Below, one piece after another: positions 7,725 through 48,904 of a stretch of DNA of 64,000 nucleotides. Under the pieces are notes generated by a model, which worked only from the letters and a program-made list of their open reading frames with translations, was not told where the DNA came from and made no database searches. The translations under genes and the position numbers were made by a program. Within the stretch, counting starts at the first letter, position 1. Each line of letters opens with the position of its first letter. The stretch is from a phage, in the sequence record OZ335963.1; one strand, written 5' to 3'.

Positions 7725-8288
7725 TTACCATTCCAATGCTAGTTTTTTGAGTTGTTTCTGTTCTTTTACGTTCTTAGTCACTTCTTTTAAAAAATCATCC
7801 GTGACTAAACCTTTTAGTTCTTTTAATACTAAAGGAAGTTTTCCATTTTTAGTAAGAATTGATTTATAGTTAATTGCATCATTTGTATTAACTTGATACC
7901 GCTTAGCAAGTAACTTAATAATCAATACTTCAGTAGAATCTTCGACCAGTTTTGCCCATTTACCATATCTTTTACCACGAGGAACAGCAGCCATCAGATA
8001 ATTAAAATGGGCTTCATCGCTTAAACCTGATCCAATTAAATTCATAGCATATACAGCTGGCATGCATTCAGGAAATTGTGATAATGCATTCTCAACCATG
8101 TATTTTGAATAATCTTTTTGAGCAATAGAGCATTTAGTTTTATTATTAATAGCTCCAATTATTTCAAAAAATTCATTTTCAGCTTTTTCCTTAAAAGAAT
8201 CAGCAGCAGATTGGACAGCTGTCCAATCTTTTGAATACCAAGCAACTTGATGCTCGTTTAATTGAATATCATCTTCAAATAAGCTCAT
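7725..8288 (-). CDS. 62: clamp loader small subunit gp62
   Basis: 187 aa, T4 position and length. Confidence 0.9.
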
Positions 8289-8289
8289 A

Positions 8290-9249
8290 TCACTTCCACT
8301 GCATTTCGCATGCCAATTGAATGAAAAGATATGCTAAATGTAATTCCGTATTAGCCGCAATTCCATGATACTGGTTATTTTCACCAACAATTTCATACAT
8401 ACGAATAATACTTTGCGGAGTTACGCGTGTATAGATTTCTTCGGCAAGTTTACCTACGAACCACGAATAATCAGCTGCATATTTTGGCGCTAAAGCTCTG
8501 AGCTGTTTAACATCTTTATTTTTGAGAGATTCAAGAACATCATCAATAGCACCACGATCGTTAGTAACCAGTGATAAAATACCAGCATCCAAAACACCTT
8601 TAGATGAATAACTATCGAGCTCGCCAATAGTTTTACGAAAATCAGGAAAATTCTTTTTAACCAAAGCTGCTACAACTTTCATATCAGCTATAGCAATTCC
8701 TTCATGCTTGCAGATTTCAGTCAATCGACGAATCATCTGCTTCATCATTTCAATTTTATCTTCATCAGTCGGTTGACCGAACGTAATAACTCGGCAGCGT
8801 GACTGAAGCGGTTTAATAATACCATCAATATTGTTAGCAGTAATAATAATACTACAGTTTGAACTATAAGCTTCCATAAAGGAACGAAGATGCCGCTGAG
8901 ACTCTGCTAACCCTGAACGGTCAAATTCATCAATAACGATTACTTTTTGACGACCATCAAATGAAGCTGCGCTAGCAAAATTAGTCAAAGGACCACGAAC
9001 GAAATCAATTTTACAATCTGACCCATTTACAAACATCATATCAGCATTTACATCATGACACAATGCTTTTGCTACAGTTGTTTTACCTGTTCCTGGAGAA
9101 GGAGAATGAAGAATAATATGTGGAATCTTACCTTTACTTGTAATAGATTTAAAGGTTTCTTTATCAAAGGCGGGAAGAATACATTCATCGATAGTAGATG
9201 GACGATATTTCTGTTCAAGAATGTGTTCTTTTTCATTTACAGTAATCAT
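8290..9249 (-). CDS. 44: clamp loader ATPase gp44
   Basis: Start at [17 protein letters not shown] with GAGGA Shine-Dalgarno; Walker A GTGKTT; 319 aa. Confidence 0.93.
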
Positions 9250-9281
9250 AATTTCCTCATTCAAGTTTTAGTGTAAATTAT

Positions 9282-9299
9282 AAAGGGCCGAAGCCCTTT
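9282..9299 (-). other. C(UUCG)G hairpin between genes 45 and 44
   Basis: aaagggccgaagcccttt; same element recurs at 13992 and 17632. Confidence 0.7.
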
Positions 9300-9300
9300 A

Positions 9301-9987
9301 TTAAAAATCGTGGGTAGAATCAGCTTCAAGAGCTACTACATAATTCGCATGTTCACCTTCAAATTTAGCAGCACCTTGTTTACCTTTTGCCCAGAGCAGA
9401 AGTTTATAATTTCCTGGTTGCATTTTCATATTTGCCATATTGATAATGAAATTAAATGTATTTTCACCATCATAATCACCAAGAGTCAAAGAATATTTAA
9501 CACGGGTCAAAGCAGAATCTTCTACTTTGTTAAAACCGTTAATTACGATTTTACCTTCTTTTACTGTGATAGCAATTGTATCAATCTGCAGACCACGAGA
9601 TACACGCAACAGCTGTTGAAGGTCTTCAGCTTTAATTTCGGTAACAACAGATGCTACCGGGAATGGAATTGGTTTATTAGGAGCAACTACTGTACTTGGA
9701 TCGGCTGCTGGCCAAAAAATTGTTGAACGAGCATCAGCAATTTTAATATTTCCATCTTCTGACTGGGAAATTTCTGCATCGTCATTAACTAGGGACAGAA
9801 TACCGAGAAAACCGTTCAAATCGTAAATTGCTACATCAAAATCAATGGTGTCAGAAATATTTGCTTCCGCATAAGTTGTACCATTAACTGCGCGAGTCAT
9901 AATAAATTGACCGGATTTAAGCATAATACCAGAGTTAATAGTAGCGAAATTTTTAAGCAGAGCAGTAGTATCTTTAGACAGTTTCAT
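9301..9987 (-). CDS. 45: sliding clamp gp45
   Basis: 228 aa, matches remembered T4 gp45. Confidence 0.95.
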   Translation of the reverse strand: MKLSKDTTALLKNFATINSGIMLKSGQFIMTRAVNGTTYAEANISDTIDFDVAIYDLNGFLGILSLVNDDAEISQSEDGNIKIADARSTIFWPAADPSTVVAPNKPIPFPVASVVTEIKAEDLQQLLRVSRGLQIDTIAITVKEGKIVINGFNKVEDSALTRVKYSLTLGDYDGENTFNFIINMANMKMQPGNYKLLLWAKGKQGAAKFEGEHANYVVALEADSTHDF

Positions 9988-29969: not shown

Positions 29970-30956
29970 TTATTTCAGAAGAGTAACCTCAGCGATTTCT
30001 TCCCAACCGTTTTTGTCGGTCATAATAAAGTCAGCAAGATAAAGAGCAGTACGCAGTGAAACATTGCGTAAACGATTAACATTAACTTTCATCCATGATA
30101 ATGCTTTATAAGTTTCTTCATCAGAAAGACCGCGCTTTTGCATCATGTCAGTTGAAAGAATAACATCTTCAACCCTGACCATAATTTCTTCATTAGTATG
30201 AACACCCAAATCCAAATAAACCGAGCGGGACACTAATGCTTGTAAATGTGGAGCAAGTTTAGTACCACGGTCTAATTCGCGGTCAATGTCAACGTTTGTG
30301 ATAAAAACAATCGTTCCTTTAAATTCAAACTCACGCTCAATGCCTTTTTCTTCTAAGTAAGAAGACGCAGTGCTCCAGCAGACTTTACGGGTCTCTCCAG
30401 TGTCCAGAGCAGCTTTTAGAAGATTAAGAATGTCCATATCAGAGAAAACATCCACATCATCAATCAAAAGGACAGAATTCTCTTCACGATTATTCCAAAG
30501 CTGTTCATAAAGACCAATACCAGAGATTTTACCATTAATGCTTTTATATTCAATGTATCCAATATCATTTGCTTTATTCAAAGCTTTATCTAAAGAATAC
30601 GTTTTACCAATACCTGCTGCGCCAGAGATAATTAATGAACGAATATTTCCATTAATAATACCATTCGTCATCATTCCCATAACATTAAATCTTTTATTAA
30701 TGCGGGTTTTCATATCTTCATACGATTCTTTAACTTCTTCAACTTTTACACCATCATATGAAATATCTGATTTGTAAACCCAAACACCGCGACGTTTACC
30801 GTCAATTTCAACAAAAACTTTACCATCTCCTTGTGCATCTACCGGAGCATTATCTGGGAACCATTCGCCTAAGAGCTCAAAAGTTCCAGAGATTTCTTTA
30901 CCGAAGTAGATACCCTTATTGATAGTTACAGTTTTCATTTTATTCTCCAATTTCAC
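29970..30956 (-). CDS. P-loop ATPase
   Basis: 328 aa; Walker A GAAGIGKT and Walker B VLLIDDVD preceded by about 100-aa N-terminal domain. Confidence 0.6.
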   Translation of the reverse strand: MKLENKMKTVTINKGIYFGKEISGTFELLGEWFPDNAPVDAQGDGKVFVEIDGKRRGVWVYKSDISYDGVKVEEVKESYEDMKTRINKRFNVMGMMTNGIINGNIRSLIISGAAGIGKTYSLDKALNKANDIGYIEYKSINGKISGIGLYEQLWNNREENSVLLIDDVDVFSDMDILNLLKAALDTGETRKVCWSTASSYLEEKGIEREFEFKGTIVFITNVDIDRELDRGTKLAPHLQALVSRSVYLDLGVHTNEEIMVRVEDVILSTDMMQKRGLSDEETYKALSWMKVNVNRLRNVSLRTALYLADFIMTDKNGWEEIAEVTLLK

Positions 30957-30962
30957 ATTTGT

Positions 30963-31015
30963 TTTGATAGGGTAATAGTATCACACTACTACCCTACTGT
31001 AAACAATTTATTTTA
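30963..31015 (-). promoter_or_regulatory. early promoter
   Basis: Minus-strand GTTTACAGTAGGGTAGTAGTGTGATACTAT. Confidence 0.5.
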
Positions 31016-31271
31016 GTGTTTGCCAAATTTTTACTGCTTCGCGACGAGATACTTCTACAGCTCCAAGTTCTACGGCTTTTTGACGTCGGCGAGCATGTAA
31101 GTCATAATGTTTAATGCGTTTATCTTGAAACCAAGAACGTTTCATTCCTATTGCTTCTGCCATTTCATGGAGCTCTTCAATATCTCCATCAGTGAACATA
31201 TGACAATTTTTAGTTAGATGACCGCGAAGTTTCCATCCATGATTCATTAAAACATCTACGTAAACTGTCAT
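31008..31271 (-). CDS. hypothetical protein (conserved small protein, possible DUF4031-like)
   Basis: 87 aa, MTVYVDVLMNHGW...HMFTD...ELHEMAEAIG...HYDL pattern; family assignment from memory only. Confidence 0.45.
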   Translation of the reverse strand: MTVYVDVLMNHGWKLRGHLTKNCHMFTDGDIEELHEMAEAIGMKRSWFQDKRIKHYDLHARRRQKAVELGAVEVSRREAVKIWQTLK

Positions 31272-31417
31272 TGATTCTGCTCCAAATATGTTTCTATAAT
31301 TTTCTGAGCGAGATAAACTGCGTTATCTTCAGTTGCGTCTTCTAAGAAATTTTCAAAATAAGCTGAAATTTCTTCTGTGTCAATCAACTTTTTTACTTCA
31401 ATTAACGTAGTTTTCAT
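31268..31417 (-). CDS. small ORF, 49 aa
   Basis: Start at MKTTLIEVKK directly downstream of the 31441 early promoter; the longer 105-aa ORF reads through that promoter. Confidence 0.4.
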   Translation of the reverse strand: MKTTLIEVKKLIDTEEISAYFENFLEDATEDNAVYLAQKIIETYLEQNQ

Positions 31418-31440
31418 TTTATTCCCCAAATCCGTATCAG

Positions 31441-31502
31441 TTGATAGTTGTATAGTACCATAAAGCTTTATGCTTGTAAACCGTTTTGTGAAAAAATTTT
31501 TG
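31441..31502 (-). promoter_or_regulatory. T4-type early promoter (repeat of the module at 4200 and 46308)
   Basis: AAAAATTTTTTCACAAAACGGTTTACAAGCATAAAGCTTTATGGTACTATAC on the minus strand. Confidence 0.7.
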
Positions 31503-31512
31503 AAATAAAAAA

Positions 31513-31530
31513 GGGAGCCCGAAGGCTCCC
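31513..31530 (-). terminator. C(UUCG)G hairpin terminator
   Basis: GGGAGCC-UUCG-GGCUCCC followed by U-run. Confidence 0.7.
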
Positions 31531-31532
31531 TA

Positions 31533-32543
31533 TCATTTATAATAACTTCGGTGGTTTTCAAGATAAACCCTCTCAAGGAAGTCATCCCAGAAACCCATGT
31601 CTACTTTTTGCTGCATACCGTTCTTAGAAGCTTCAATAGATGCTGCTTCTACTTGATCGACCACATCTTCCAAAAACTCTTGAACAGTTTTAAATGGATG
31701 TTTACCCAACTTCACGTCGAGAATAAATGGAGCGTCTTGAAGTGGATAGACTAAGTCACCAGTTTTGTAAATTTCCAATAGTTGGAGTCCGCCACGACAA
31801 GCATGACTTAGAGCTTTCCAGTCAATGCCCTCATTCGCTTCAGCCTTACGAGCGCGTTCGCCGTATTCAGCATCTAATTTGTTCAGTGACTGCTTAAGCT
31901 CGATAAGAGAAAGCGTTGTCTGATATTTACGGCCCAACACAGTGTAGAACGTTTGTGGGCCTGTTTTCTCATGATTATGGAATACCCATTCACAGAATTC
32001 GTTCTCTGGAAGACGATGCTTAATATCTTCAACTTTAGTTCGACGCTGCTTAATGGAACCGTCTTCTTGGTAATCAACCCATTGCTCAGGGATTTGATTA
32101 ACTACTTTCAATACATCACGCAATGCGGCCAAACGAGAACCCTTGACACCATATTTAGAAGCTTGCTTGCGGACATATCCTAAATAAGATTTCATGTTAG
32201 TTGTATAAAAACGAGAACGATTGTCTTGAATAAATTTCCATACATCAGGCAAATCAGATTTAACTACCAGTTCAGGTGGAGTGTGAAGCATATCTAATGC
32301 TACGGTTTCACCATCTACTGCTAATTTAAAGAAATATTTAAGACTGTATAGTTCATGGTCAATATCATCTTTAGTGTTTTTAGATGATGTGTTGTTGGTA
32401 TTTTTACTCATATGCTCTTTAACATTTCCGATAAGAATATCACGAGCAGGAGGAACAAAGATTTCTTTAAAATCTACATCAGATTCTGGTGTAGAAGTTC
32501 CATAAAGATGACTACCGAAATAGCTTTTCATTACTGTTTTCAT
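31533..32543 (-). CDS. putative nucleotidyltransferase (Pol-beta superfamily)
   Basis: N-terminal YFGSHLYGTSTPESDVDF fits the hG[GS]x9-13Dh[DE] NTase signature; 336 aa. Confidence 0.55.
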   Translation of the reverse strand: MKTVMKSYFGSHLYGTSTPESDVDFKEIFVPPARDILIGNVKEHMSKNTNNTSSKNTKDDIDHELYSLKYFFKLAVDGETVALDMLHTPPELVVKSDLPDVWKFIQDNRSRFYTTNMKSYLGYVRKQASKYGVKGSRLAALRDVLKVVNQIPEQWVDYQEDGSIKQRRTKVEDIKHRLPENEFCEWVFHNHEKTGPQTFYTVLGRKYQTTLSLIELKQSLNKLDAEYGERARKAEANEGIDWKALSHACRGGLQLLEIYKTGDLVYPLQDAPFILDVKLGKHPFKTVQEFLEDVVDQVEAASIEASKNGMQQKVDMGFWDDFLERVYLENHRSYYK

Positions 32544-32986
32544 TTAACATCCTTAAATTCTATCATAGGGCAGATTTTAGATTTACTAGCTTTAAGGTAT
32601 TCAACGATTACACTATTAGGATGTTCAATACCGTTTTCTTCGTCTTGTTGACGCTTCCACGCTCTATCATACCTGACTCCTTCCCATAAACCTGAAATCT
32701 TAGCTACAATATATGCTATACCTACTGCAATAACGACAATCGTAGCAAATATCAGTACACCAAATACGGTTCCGCCTGCGTGTAGAAGCCAGAATCCTGT
32801 AACACCAAATTGACTTAAAATAGCTTGTCCTACCACCCAACTACCTAATAGCCCCGATGTGCAAATAACACCGATAACTAAGAACGTCCACGCCATTTTC
32901 CAGAAATATTTACACAAAGAATTCGGACGCTGCCAGTAAAAGAAATCATGCATACGAACGTGCCAAGAGTTTTCATTAATAATCAT
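32540..32986 (-). CDS. membrane protein
   Basis: 148 aa, three predicted hydrophobic helices. Confidence 0.55.
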   Translation of the reverse strand: MIINENSWHVRMHDFFYWQRPNSLCKYFWKMAWTFLVIGVICTSGLLGSWVVGQAILSQFGVTGFWLLHAGGTVFGVLIFATIVVIAVGIAYIVAKISGLWEGVRYDRAWKRQQDEENGIEHPNSVIVEYLKASKSKICPMIEFKDVK

Positions 32987-48072: not shown

Positions 48073-48148
48073 TGGTCGAGGCAGTAGGGATCGAACCTAC
48101 GACCTAGGACTTAGAAGGTCCTTGCTCTTCCTTCTGAGCTATGCCTCG
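48073..48148 (-). tRNA. tRNA-Arg (UCU)
   Basis: Hand-folded cloverleaf: acceptor CGAGGCA/TGCCTCG, anticodon loop CUUCUAA, T-arm GGTTCGATCC, CCA encoded. Confidence 0.8.
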
Positions 48149-48152
48149 TATT

Positions 48153-48227
48153 TGGCGGACATGCATGGATTCGAACCATGGACCAATTGATTAACAGTCA
48201 ACTGCTCTACCACTGAGCTACACATCC
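48153..48227 (-). tRNA. tRNA-Asn (GUU)
   Basis: Hand-folded: D-arm TAGCTCAGTGGTAGAGC, anticodon loop CUGUUAA, T-arm GGTTCGAATCC, CCA encoded; acceptor has two G-U pairs. Confidence 0.65.
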
Positions 48228-48231
48228 AAAT

Positions 48232-48318
48232 TGGTGGGGAGTGATGGAGTCGAACCACCCGAGTCGCAATGACAATGGATTTACAGTCCACACCGCTACC
48301 TCTACGGGATAACTCCCC
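48232..48318 (-). tRNA. tRNA-Tyr (GUA)
   Basis: Hand-folded: acceptor GGGGAGT/ACTCCCC, anticodon loop CUGUAAA, long variable arm, CCA encoded. Confidence 0.65.
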
Positions 48319-48331
48319 TTAATTCTTAATT

Positions 48332-48406
48332 TGGTGGCCCTGGGTGGAATTGAACCACCATCTGGCGATTATGAGTCGCTTGCTTGAACCTTCCAGCTAC
48401 AGGGCC
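48332..48406 (-). tRNA. tRNA with CAU anticodon (Ile or Met)
   Basis: Hand-folded: acceptor GGCCCTG/CAGGGCC, anticodon loop CUCAUAA, T-arm GGTTCAATTCC, CCA encoded. Confidence 0.7.
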
Positions 48407-48407
48407 T

Positions 48408-48483
48408 TGGTGCTGATTGACGGAATCGAACCGCCGACATCCTCATTACAAGTGAGGTGCTCTACCTACTGAGCTAAATCAGC
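48408..48483 (-). tRNA. tRNA-Thr (UGU)
   Basis: Hand-folded: acceptor GCTGATT/AATCAGC, anticodon stem CCTCA/TGAGG, loop CUUGUAA, CCA encoded. Confidence 0.8.
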
Positions 48484-48488
48484 AAAAC

Positions 48489-48578
48489 TGGCGGAGGCGA
48501 TAGGATTTGAACCTATGAGTCGCCGGAGCGACTGCCGGTTTTCAAGACCGGTGCATTAAACCACTCTGCCACGCCTCC
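48489..48578 (-). tRNA. tRNA-Ser (UGA)
   Basis: Hand-folded: acceptor GGAGGCG/CGCCTCC, anticodon loop CUUGAAA, long variable arm, CCA encoded. Confidence 0.8.
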
Positions 48579-48580
48579 AG

Positions 48581-48654
48581 TCTCCGCGGCAGGATTTGAA
48601 CCTGCGACATTCTGCTCCCAAAGCAGACGCTCTACCAAACTGAGCTACACGGAG
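48581..48654 (-). tRNA. tRNA-Pro (UGG), CCA not encoded
   Basis: Hand-folded: anticodon stem TCTGC/GCAGA, loop UUUGGGA; 3' end abuts tRNA-Ser with 2-nt spacer. Confidence 0.8.
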
Positions 48655-48664
48655 TAAATTAAAT

Positions 48665-48738
<74 letters not shown>

Positions 48739-48743
48739 AAATT

Positions 48744-48830
48744 TGGTGCGAGAAGTGGGACTCGAACCCACAAGGAAATCATTCCGCAGCATTTTAAGTG
48801 CTGTGCCTTTACCAATTTGACCATTCTCGC
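48744..48830 (-). tRNA. tRNA-Leu (UAA)
   Basis: Hand-folded: acceptor GCGAGAA/TTCTCGC, anticodon loop CUUAAAA, long variable arm, CCA encoded. Confidence 0.8.
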
Positions 48831-48831
48831 G

Positions 48832-48904
48832 CTGGGAATAAAGGACTCGAACCTTTGCATCTAGCAGTCAAAGTGCTATGCCTTACCAACTTGGCTAATT
48901 CCCA
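48832..48904 (-). tRNA. tRNA-Gln (UUG), CCA not encoded
   Basis: Hand-folded: acceptor TGGGAAT/ATTCCCA, anticodon loop CUUUGAC; 3' end 1 nt from tRNA-Leu 5' end. Confidence 0.8.

Follow-up and report, generated by a model that had tools for sequence, protein, structure and literature searches.

The discovery of RNA repair was made in phage T4, whose Pnk and Rnl1 reverse cleavage by the anticodon nuclease PrrC. [quoted passage not shown] RlaP has been predicted to restore excised nucleotides of the RloC kind (PMC7824862). PfRlaP and PaRlaP, encoded in RtcB operons of Pseudomonas, were reported in a preprint to add 1-2 NMP to an RNA 3'-OH with no activity on DNA or protein, to favour Mn2+ and the 5' half of cleaved tRNA, and to restore aminoacylation to a tRNA lacking one anticodon-loop nucleotide (10.64898/2025.12.29.696909). 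According to the same work, canonical RlaP requires an RNA primer, shows little NTP specificity, prefers an anticodon-side break over the acceptor end, and labels many E. coli RNAs, intact tRNA and rRNA included, while E. coli proteins stay unlabelled (10.64898/2025.12.29.696909). This preprint of December 2025 also assigned T4 NrdC.11 to cluster 5 of the PF10127 SSN, canonical RlaP forming cluster 1a (10.64898/2025.12.29.696909).

The nrdC.11 gene and its transcription unit

We analysed a 64,000-nucleotide stretch of phage DNA (OZ335963.1), referred to here as the window, in which an open reading frame on the minus strand had been taken for a Pol-beta-type nucleotidyltransferase (NTase) gene from its sequence alone. 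The frame is a real gene of 336 codons plus stop, begins MKTVMKSYFGSHLYGTSTPESDVDF, and shares 329 of its 336 residues with T4 NrdC.11 (NP_049709.1), a protein of the same length named nucleotidyltransferase in RefSeq. This answers the question, left open in the sequence-only reading, of whether T4 carries the gene. In addition to the RefSeq annotation, the 2025 preprint names the T4 protein as an RlaP; gene, family and predicted role are already known from Pfam, RefSeq and the literature. The gene, its signals and its downstream neighbours are as follows.

31533..32543, minus strand: coding sequence of the T4 NrdC.11 ortholog, an RlaP-family (PF10127) Pol-beta nucleotidyltransferase (98% identity, Pfam, PHROG 388)
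32550..32554, minus strand: Shine-Dalgarno sequence AAGGA, 6 nt 5' of the NrdC.11 ATG
31503..31531, minus strand: strong intrinsic terminator with a G+C-rich 8-bp stem, UUCG tetraloop and U-run, 2 nt past the stop codon
31268-31423: 51-aa gene (phrog_6888)
31008-31271: DUF4031 protein gene (PF13223, E 1e-21)
29970-30956: AAA-type ATPase gene (nrdC.10), with weak AAA matches and PHROG 1250 at E 1e-166

The window gene takes the same position and orientation as in T4, where nrdC.11 sits between nrdC.10 and mobD (the nrdC.10 - mobD/rI region). The two loci differ in that the 51-aa and DUF4031 genes are inserted between nrdC.11 and nrdC.10 in the window, and in that a gene for a 148-aa membrane protein stands upstream in place of the homing endonuclease gene mobD; the TGA stop of this upstream gene shares ATGA with the nrdC.11 start codon. 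The two larger downstream genes had been placed correctly before, while the 51-aa gene had been overlooked. The UUCG terminator that had been ascribed to the gene was borne out by folding: the structure AGGGAGCC-UUCG-GGCUCCCU followed by UUUUUUAUUU, running from 31531 to 31503 on the minus strand, has 8 pairs of which 6 are G-C and a folding energy of −17.7 kcal/mol (z = −3.9), a stability that none of 200 shuffles matched. A terminator is annotated at the equivalent site in the related phage G9062. The nrdC.11 gene is the final gene of an early transcription unit closed by its own terminator.

A Pol-beta core in a long subtype of RlaP

NrdC.11 matched the Pfam family PF10127 (RlaP) with 42.6 bits and an E-value of 7.9e-11, against a curated gathering threshold of 23, over residues 6-134 (profile positions 23-142 of 249), and it matched PHROG 388 'nucleotidyltransferase' at E 3.8e-136. 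In an alignment of 144 diverse homologs (33-84% identical), 143 matched PF10127 too; G10 and S11 were invariant and D22, D24 and D62 nearly invariant, with D22 and D24 kept in at least 90% of the sequences. These residues fall into the Pol-beta signature F9-G10-S11...D22-V-D24, with the spacing of hG[GS]...Dh[DE], and the profile scores together with the residue conservation indicate that the motif is not a chance match. In an AlphaFold (AF2) model of high confidence (pLDDT 94.6), a minimal Pol-beta NTase domain is followed by a helical domain with a beta-rich insert. The features of the protein are as follows.

32139..32543, minus strand: minimal NTase domain, N-terminal, aa 1-135, with beta1-alpha-beta2...beta4 topology
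32472..32519, minus strand: motif FGSHLYGTSTPESDVD, aa 9-24, with the hG[GS] loop and the D22xD24 metal-binding carboxylates
32358..32360, minus strand: D62, near-invariant, on predicted strand beta4 (aa 61-67)
32133..32177, minus strand: conserved basic motif YVRKQASKYGVKGSR, aa 123-137
31536..32138, minus strand: C-terminal domain, mostly helical and HEPN/KNTase-C-like, aa 136-336
31920..32084, minus strand: beta-rich insert in the C-terminal domain, aa 154-208, marking the 'long' NrdC.11 subtype
31794..31829, minus strand: signature motif GIDWKALSHACR, aa 239-250, with H247 and R250 invariant

From its conservation and its place on a predicted strand, D62 is likely the third catalytic carboxylate; it is retained in T4 NrdC.11, which has N60 in place of D60. 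Within the basic motif YVRKQASKYGVKGSR, Y131 is invariant and Y123, Q127, K130, G135 and R137 are nearly so. The C-terminal domain is helical and basic and ends in a helix predicted with high confidence (aa 316-335), while the insert, whose strands in the model are 154-158, 164-168, 184-191, 195-202 and 205-208, is variable in sequence, with poorly conserved columns among the 144 homologs. Fold matches of the model were all Pol-beta NTases (HalB, 3c18 and kanamycin/ANT NTases), none attaining E 1e-3 in Foldseek and none being a cGAS/DncV-like chain, and short viral NTases aligned structurally over their full length with a TM of up to 0.7 on the target. Searches of the PDB by sequence, with the single protein or the 144-sequence profile, returned nothing meaningful from a set that apparently lacks the PfRlaP crystal structure. 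Pfam, PHROG, residue conservation, predicted structure and fold matches therefore agree that NrdC.11 is a nucleotidyltransferase of the Pol-beta superfamily.

HalB of the Hailong system (PDB 9dbh/9dbj) is a defence NTase that synthesises oligodeoxyadenylate, and NrdC.11 could by analogy be a nucleotide-signal or anti-defence enzyme, either making a HalB-like oligodeoxyadenylate that silences the host effector HalA or interfering with CBASS or Thoeris. However, HalB has 217 residues against the 336 of NrdC.11, is only 14-16% identical to it, falls short of E 1e-3 in Foldseek with little in common beyond the generic NTase core, and comes from another genomic context with no sequence-family link. 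Neither PADLOC nor the CD-NTase families matched NrdC.11, the gene context described below points to RNA repair, and extension by canonical RlaP depends on an RNA primer and does not occur on DNA, so that we regard a signalling role as very improbable. A CD-NTase (CBASS) or other defence NTase was rejected as a family assignment because PADLOC, Pfam and cGAS/DncV-like folds gave no match. A further reading is that NrdC.11 transfers nucleotides to a protein or a small molecule, in the manner of ANT/KNTase antibiotic transferases, MNT-HEPN AMPylation or GlnE. Kanamycin/ANT NTases and MNT-HEPN pairs use antibiotics or a HEPN toxin tyrosine as acceptors and have no sequence-family match to NrdC.11, in which the HEPN Rx4-6H motif is absent and H-x2-R is found instead. 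With E. coli proteins left unlabelled by canonical RlaP, and with conserved basic surface motifs and RNA-repair neighbourhoods indicating a nucleic-acid acceptor, little credence can be given to this activity either. The MNT/AbiEii toxin-antitoxin assignment was likewise rejected, as neither a family match nor a HEPN/AbiEi partner gene was found. For NCBIfam, as for PADLOC, there was no match for the NTase or its neighbours.

Canonical RlaP and NrdC.11 share their Pfam family, their catalytic motifs and the plan of an N-terminal NTase followed by a C-terminal helical domain, and relatives of either type are linked to RtcB, RtcA and Pnkp/Hen1 operons. By contrast, NrdC.11 is about 80 residues longer and carries the extra beta-rich insert at aa 154-208. 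Aligned by hhalign with 15 canonical RlaPs, NrdC.11 matched over aa 1-130 only (94% probability, E 1e-7), whereas no significant match for its C-terminal 200 residues emerged when the C-terminal halves were aligned globally with the same program (E 0.12). NrdC.11 is thus a distinct 'long' subtype of RlaP that matches the canonical enzyme over the NTase half only, a distinction that is new here. A K-x3-[H/Y]-x2-R motif occurs in both C-terminal domains, and the signature of the long subtype, GIDWKALSHACR, written as DWKAxSHAxR, fell in register with the canonical KxYxYALR motif in that same global alignment (E 0.12), a correspondence that is suggestive only. The C-terminal 200 residues presumably set the acceptor specificity. 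Of the 80 cellular loci described below, 17-19 carry a long and a canonical short form in tandem, which argues against functional interchangeability, so that the canonical biochemistry may not transfer to NrdC.11. The two are paralogs, probably with distinct roles.

Genomic context and a probable RNA acceptor

For the cellular context we took 80 loci from bacteria or archaea whose full-length homologs share 32-54% identity with NrdC.11, and considered neighbours within 6 kb. RNA-repair genes were found in 16 of these loci, often directly abutting (RtcB in 9, Pnkp in 6, Hen1 in 5, Ro60/TROVE in 3 and RtcA in 2), and the remaining 64 had no recognisable RNA-repair neighbour. Viral contigs presented related arrangements: besides the adjoining HD-domain and CCA-enzyme genes described below, three contigs other than those with the HD gene have the order NrdC.11-type gene, ATP-dependent ligase, RtcB, and five contigs in all have an RtcB match within 2.5 kb. 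Homologs of NrdC.10 or DUF4031 neighboured none of the 80 cellular NrdC.11-type genes, and in the Vibrio phages nt-1, D485 and R16F neither adjoins the NrdC.11 homolog. Because of this, and because a terminator and two early-type promoters stand between nrdC.11 and the nrdC.10 and DUF4031 genes, both were rejected as functional partners, and the link to the downstream ATPase that had been suggested from the sequence is weak. In the window itself no second RlaP gene was found and, with Rnl1, Pnk, RtcB, RtcA, Pnkp, Hen1, Ro60 and CCA enzyme as seeds, no RNA-repair gene.

Modification of tRNA 3' ends is another activity proposed earlier; as maturation or repair, it would have NrdC.11 supplying CCA to phage tRNAs that do not encode it or to tRNAs whose acceptor ends a host toxin has trimmed. 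Ten tRNA genes are present in the window and two of them, for Pro and Gln, indeed lack encoded CCA. The class II CCA-adding enzyme is likewise a template-independent Pol-beta NTase working on RNA 3' ends (NrdC.11 by analogy with canonical RlaP), and its pairing of NTase and HD domain is recreated in viral contigs by an NrdC.11-type protein and a separate HD protein. Among 80 diverse viral contigs, 14 have a small HD-domain phosphohydrolase gene, resembling the domain fused to class II CCA enzymes, directly beside the NrdC.11-type gene; in 13 of the 14 it follows within 371 bp, and in the other it lies just upstream. Labelling of full-length tRNA by canonical RlaP in vitro also agrees with this activity. 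However, NrdC.11 has no PF01743 (PolyA_pol) head and none of the neck and body domains of the class II enzyme, and on the missing PF01743 match the assignment as a CCA-adding enzyme was rejected. Canonical RlaP, moreover, is poorly NTP-specific, halts after 1-2 nt and prefers the anticodon-side break. A full CCA-adding/repair enzyme adjoins the homolog in two phages, Vibrio phage vB_VpaM_R16F and contig L088, and genes neighbouring the homologs in contigs L005 and L088 match PF01743; such adjacency may be counted in favour of work on the acceptor end, but the homolog is retained beside the genuine enzyme and does not replace it, suggesting a different job. The T4 tRNAs without CCA reportedly rely on the host CCA enzyme, as described by Deutscher, Foulds and McClain in 1974. 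Taken together, we consider a role in CCA addition unlikely.

Alternatively, NrdC.11 might tail the 3' ends of host tRNA, rRNA or mRNA for inactivation or decay during shut-off, in the manner of MenT or a poly(A) polymerase. The broad labelling of E. coli RNAs by canonical RlaP, even of intact tRNA and rRNA, the location of nrdC.11 in the early accessory region and the similarity of its fold to MNT-type NTases are all in line with such tailing. Against it, the phage relies on the translation machinery of its host, cellular relatives of NrdC.11 lie in repair operons (RtcB, RtcA, Pnkp/Hen1, Ro60) and not in toxin operons, and neither an antitoxin-like partner nor a PADLOC match was seen, so that we consider host RNA tailing improbable. 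Of the activities offered in the sequence-only reading, modification of nucleic-acid 3' ends is thus favoured by the evidence, while the CCA-adding, CD-NTase and MNT/AbiEii identities give way to RlaP as the family.

Predicted nucleotide restoration in tRNA repair

By analogy with the RlaP branch to which it belongs, we propose, with a probability of about 0.6, that NrdC.11 refills trimmed 5' tRNA halves after Pnk has healed the ends and before Rnl1 seals them. In the proposed pathway, a host anticodon nuclease would cut and trim a tRNA, RloC with its removal of the wobble nucleotide being a candidate, and T4 Pnk would first turn the 2',3'-cyclic or 3'-phosphate end into a 3'-OH. Next, NrdC.11 would add back the missing nucleotides on the 5' tRNA half, its likely substrate, and Rnl1 would seal the refilled tRNA. 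A fraction of the tRNA repaired in this way would be functional, which would defeat a defence irreversible by simple heal-and-seal. T4 encodes both heal-and-seal partners, Pnk and Rnl1, with rnlA and pseT lying about 80 kb from nrdC.11. Genus by genus of the host, NrdC.11, Rnl1 and Pnk have near-identical numbers of phage records, a co-distribution that may reflect no more than shared Straboviridae ancestry. If NrdC.11 does refill gaps, the classic two-enzyme pathway would become a three-enzyme one, and a widespread host defence would gain a known counter-measure.

More tentatively, NrdC.11 might represent a functionally distinct long subtype, with its own C-terminal domain, insert and DWKAxSHAxR signature and its frequent tandem occurrence with canonical RlaP in bacteria, that in T-even phages restores nucleotides between the Pnk and Rnl1 steps and so reverses excision of the RloC type; we consider this less likely than not. 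Were it true, T4 could reverse nucleases thought to be repair-proof, such as RloC. T4 tolerates deletion of nrdC.11 (PMC9825161); under laboratory conditions the gene is dispensable, and it is easily deleted. About 1500 sequenced phages carry it, with homologs counted in 1520 phage records.

The nrdC.11 ortholog and its transcription unit

A 3.2-kb region of the window is 95-97% identical to many Tequatrovirus (T-even) genomes, and the source of the window is a Tequatrovirus. The nucleotidyltransferase (NTase) gene encodes a protein identical to T4 NrdC.11 at 329 of 336 residues (98%), and T4 NrdC.11 lies in the same position, with the RefSeq annotation 'nucleotidyltransferase'. This makes it T4 nrdC.11, a gene already known from its RlaP assignment in Pfam, from that RefSeq label and from a 2025 preprint that discusses it under this name. 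Many records of its orthologs are mislabelled 'thioredoxin' and one 'putative HNH homing endonuclease' in GenBank and UniRef names, which appears to be name bleed from the flanking nrdC and mobD.

Features of the window (coordinates, strand, description)
29970-30956, minus: NrdC.10 ortholog, AAA-type ATPase (PHROG 1250; Pfam AAA_14 and nSTAND3 sub-threshold only)
31003..30975, minus: second T4-early-type promoter-like site, 5' of the ATPase gene
31008-31271, minus: DUF4031 protein (PF13223, Pfam)
31268-31423, minus: 51-aa gene (phrog_6888)
31480..31452, minus: T4-early-type promoter, TTTACA-N17-TACTAT with TG extension, directly past the NTase terminator and serving the 51-aa/DUF4031 pair
31533-32543, minus: nrdC.11 ortholog, NTase coding sequence, 336 aa, N-terminus MKTVMKSYFGSHLYGTSTPESDVDF
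32540-32986, minus: 148-aa predicted membrane protein (phrog_944)
48073-48904, minus: ten tRNA genes (Arg, Asn, Tyr, Met/Ile-CAU, Thr, Ser, Pro, Gly, Leu, Gln)

The open reading frame called in the sequence-only reading was confirmed, with an AAGGA ribosome-binding site 6 nt 5' of its ATG and an ATGA shared between this start and the TGA of the membrane-protein gene upstream. The UUCG terminator assigned to the gene in that reading was likewise borne out: it begins 2 bases past the stop codon as AGGGAGCC-UUCG-GGCUCCCU followed by UUUUUUAUUU, folds at -17.7 kcal/mol (z = -3.9, equalled by none of 200 shuffles) and matches in position a terminator annotated in the close relative phage G9062. With this terminator and two early-type promoters between them, the genes for the NTase, the two small proteins and the ATPase form three separate transcription units, the NTase gene being placed in an early unit with a terminator of its own. 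The two downstream neighbours described earlier, a small protein and an ATPase, stand as the DUF4031 and AAA-type genes, but the 51-aa gene had been overlooked. These 51-aa and DUF4031 genes fill an interval between nrdC.11 and nrdC.10 that in T4 is merely a 115-bp gap, whereas the T4 slot of the HNH homing endonuclease gene mobD is taken by the membrane-protein gene. The NrdC.10 ATPase was considered as a partner of NrdC.11 and rejected, since their synteny, kept in Tevenvirinae and Acinetobacter phages, is absent in Vibrio phages, and no NrdC.10 or DUF4031 homolog lies near the NrdC.11-type (long) gene at any of 80 cellular loci.

Family membership, fold and relation to canonical RlaP

Of 50,697 phage records searched by tblastn, 1520 contain NrdC.11 homologs, with identities falling to about 30%; their carriers are T4-like phages that infect Escherichia, Klebsiella, Shigella, Aeromonas, Acinetobacter, Vibrio and other hosts. 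HMMER, run exhaustively against 1.84 billion cluster representatives, gave 3403 matches at E <= 1e-3 (825 at E <= 1e-30), and nearly all of the best 150 of these were full length (300-360 aa). The Pfam family PF10127, RlaP ('RNA repair pathway DNA polymerase beta family'), scored 42.6 bits (curated cut-off 23) and matched 143 of 144 diverse homologs, and PHROG 388 ('nucleotidyltransferase') matched at E 3.8e-136; CCA-enzyme head domains and CD-NTase models in Pfam, PADLOC defence profiles and NCBIfam gave no match to the ortholog. We regard the assignment of the window gene to NrdC.11 and the RlaP family as practically certain.

In an alignment of the 144 homologs (33-84% identical to the window protein), G10, S11, Y131, H247, R250 and P267 were invariant and the catalytic candidates D22, D24, D62 and D84 nearly so, with conserved basic motifs at residues 127-137 (QAxKYGxKGSR), 227-231 (YGxRA) and 239-250 (GxDWKAxSHAxR), and a VKxG motif. 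The AlphaFold2 model built from this alignment (pLDDT 94.6, pTM 0.83) comprises an N-terminal alpha/beta NTase domain (about residues 1-135) and a mostly helical C-terminal domain split by a five-stranded beta insert of variable sequence (residues 154-208). A predicted structure lacking the Pol-beta fold had been named earlier as refuting the nucleotidyltransferase call; the model does have that fold, and together with the family matches and catalytic motifs it supports the call. Foldseek matches were Pol-beta NTases (HalB, 3c18, kanamycin/ANT), none of them below E 1e-3; PDB sequence searches found nothing, and a viral structure library gave 35 matches at E <= 1e-3, including shorter phage 'nucleotidyltransferases' aligned over their whole length.

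Two canonical RlaPs encoded in RtcB operons of Pseudomonas have been characterised in a December 2025 preprint by Carruthers, Fatma and Huang (10.64898/2025.12.29.696909). They put 1 or 2 NMPs onto an RNA 3'-OH from any NTP and also dATP, prefer Mn2+ and leave DNA and protein unmodified. The 5' half of anticodon-cleaved tRNA is a favoured substrate, and a tRNA lacking one anticodon-loop nucleotide partly recovers its aminoacylation through their action; the crystal structure shows an NTase and a helical domain. The same preprint proposes that RlaP is the antidote against 'smart' ribotoxins, RloC for example, a prediction already made by Burroughs and Aravind (2016; quoted in PMC7824862), and its PF10127 similarity network places 'T4NrdC.11' in cluster 5 and the assayed enzymes in cluster 1a (10.64898/2025.12.29.696909). 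Judged by sequence comparison, NrdC.11 falls outside the canonical RlaPs. Its match to PF10127 is confined to the NTase half (profile positions 23-142 of 249), and profile-profile comparison with 15 canonical RlaPs, each a full-length PF10127 match (E 1e-51 to 1e-79), aligned residues 1-130 only (94% probability, E 1e-7), with no significant alignment between the C-terminal halves. A non-significant global alignment puts K243-x3-H247-x2-R250 in register with the canonical KxYxYALR.

Gene neighbourhoods of long-type genes

The long subtype is not restricted to phages: when the genomes of 185,579 species were scanned, 156 copies were confirmed, and 80 of these cellular loci were examined. The homologs there have full length and 32-54% identity and come from Desulfobacterales, Nitrospirota, Alphaproteobacteria and a small number of archaeal MAGs; many lie on contigs of megabase size. 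Neighbours within 6 kb at the 80 loci were clustered and annotated with Pfam.

RNA-repair genes within 6 kb of the long-type gene (80 cellular loci)
RtcB: 9
Pnkp: 6
Hen1: 5
Ro60/TROVE: 3
RtcA: 2
Any of these: 16

These neighbours often directly adjoin the NTase gene. Pnkp overlaps it or sits just 5' of it at three loci (L057, L077, L084), two of which also carry Hen1 (L057, L084), and an uncultured Nitrosospira has a composite operon, Ro60/TROVE-RtcB-RtcA-long-short-Hen1 (L046:3555-11158). A canonical (short) RlaP of about 255 aa with a full-length PF10127 match lies immediately 3' of the long gene at 17-19 of the 80 loci (L011, L013, L023, L024, L029, L039, L046, L057, L059, L060, L063, L072, L075, L076 and L081 among them, at about 8000-9800 in most), so the two are paralogs that probably do different jobs or work jointly.

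Small HD-domain genes directly adjoin the NrdC.11-type gene in bacteria (L019:8909-9541, L083:8951-9484) and, among 80 diverse IMG/VR viral contigs, in 14, where the HD phosphohydrolase (160-190 aa; L090:8902-9381, L095:9223-9756, L129:8879-9394 and 11 further loci) lies no more than 371 bp 3' of the NTase gene in 13 contigs and just 5' of it in the remaining one. This is the NTase and HD pairing of bacterial CCA-adding/repair enzymes, here as two genes. Given the long/short tandems and this HD partnership, a role akin but not identical to that of canonical RlaP is suggested. Three contigs (L160:3798-7473, L164:7968-12483, L166:2525-6495) carry the NTase gene, an ATP-dependent ligase (DNA_ligase_A_M), small ORF(s) and RtcB in that order. 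As read from gene content, an NTase, a putative HD 3'-end phosphoesterase and a ligase form the set expected for healing, refilling and sealing.

The HD neighbours, the complete CCA-adding/repair enzyme that adjoins the long-type gene in two phages, and the Pro and Gln tRNA genes, which are the two noted earlier, without names, as lacking an encoded 3' CCA, could also point to repair of CCA ends by NrdC.11. We consider this unlikely, as NrdC.11 has no CCA-enzyme domains, genuine CCA enzymes are kept alongside the long-type gene and T4 tRNAs rely on the host CCA enzyme.

Proposed role in RNA repair

By analogy with the family biochemistry, NrdC.11 would add 1-2 nucleotides to an RNA 3'-OH without a template. 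Gene context and established T4 biology point to tRNA halves trimmed by a host nuclease as the putative substrate, and to an order in which the T4 tRNA-repair enzyme Pnk would act first (3' healing, 5' phosphorylation) and NrdC.11 second, before sealing by Rnl1. We put the probability of this mechanism as a whole, a refill of 1-2 nt between Pnk and Rnl1, at about 0.6; our chief doubt concerns the presumed acceptor-binding half of NrdC.11, which is unlike that of the assayed canonical RlaPs. The fold would fit tailing of host RNA, which we hold to be improbable, and also synthesis or mimicry of a signal (including HalB-like oligo-dA activity) or nucleotidylylation of a protein or small molecule, both very improbable; each of the three is at odds with the gene contexts.

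The refill between Pnk and Rnl1 was also considered in its T-even setting. A search of the 64-kb window with seeds for Rnl1, Pnk, RtcB, RtcA, Pnkp, Hen1, Ro60 and a CCA enzyme found no RNA-repair gene, and a further RlaP besides NrdC.11 was likewise not found; on the T4 map nrdC.11 lies at 55 kb, pseT (Pnk) at 134 kb and rnlA (Rnl1) at 136 kb, and T4 tolerates deletion of nrdC.11 (PMC9825161). The near-equal counts per host genus are consistent with one pathway, common descent being equally possible.

Phage records with NrdC.11, Rnl1 and Pnk, by host genus
Escherichia: 611, 637, 636
Klebsiella: 286, 287, 286
Shigella: 83, 83, 83
Aeromonas: 75, 77, 77
Acinetobacter: 69, 69, 70
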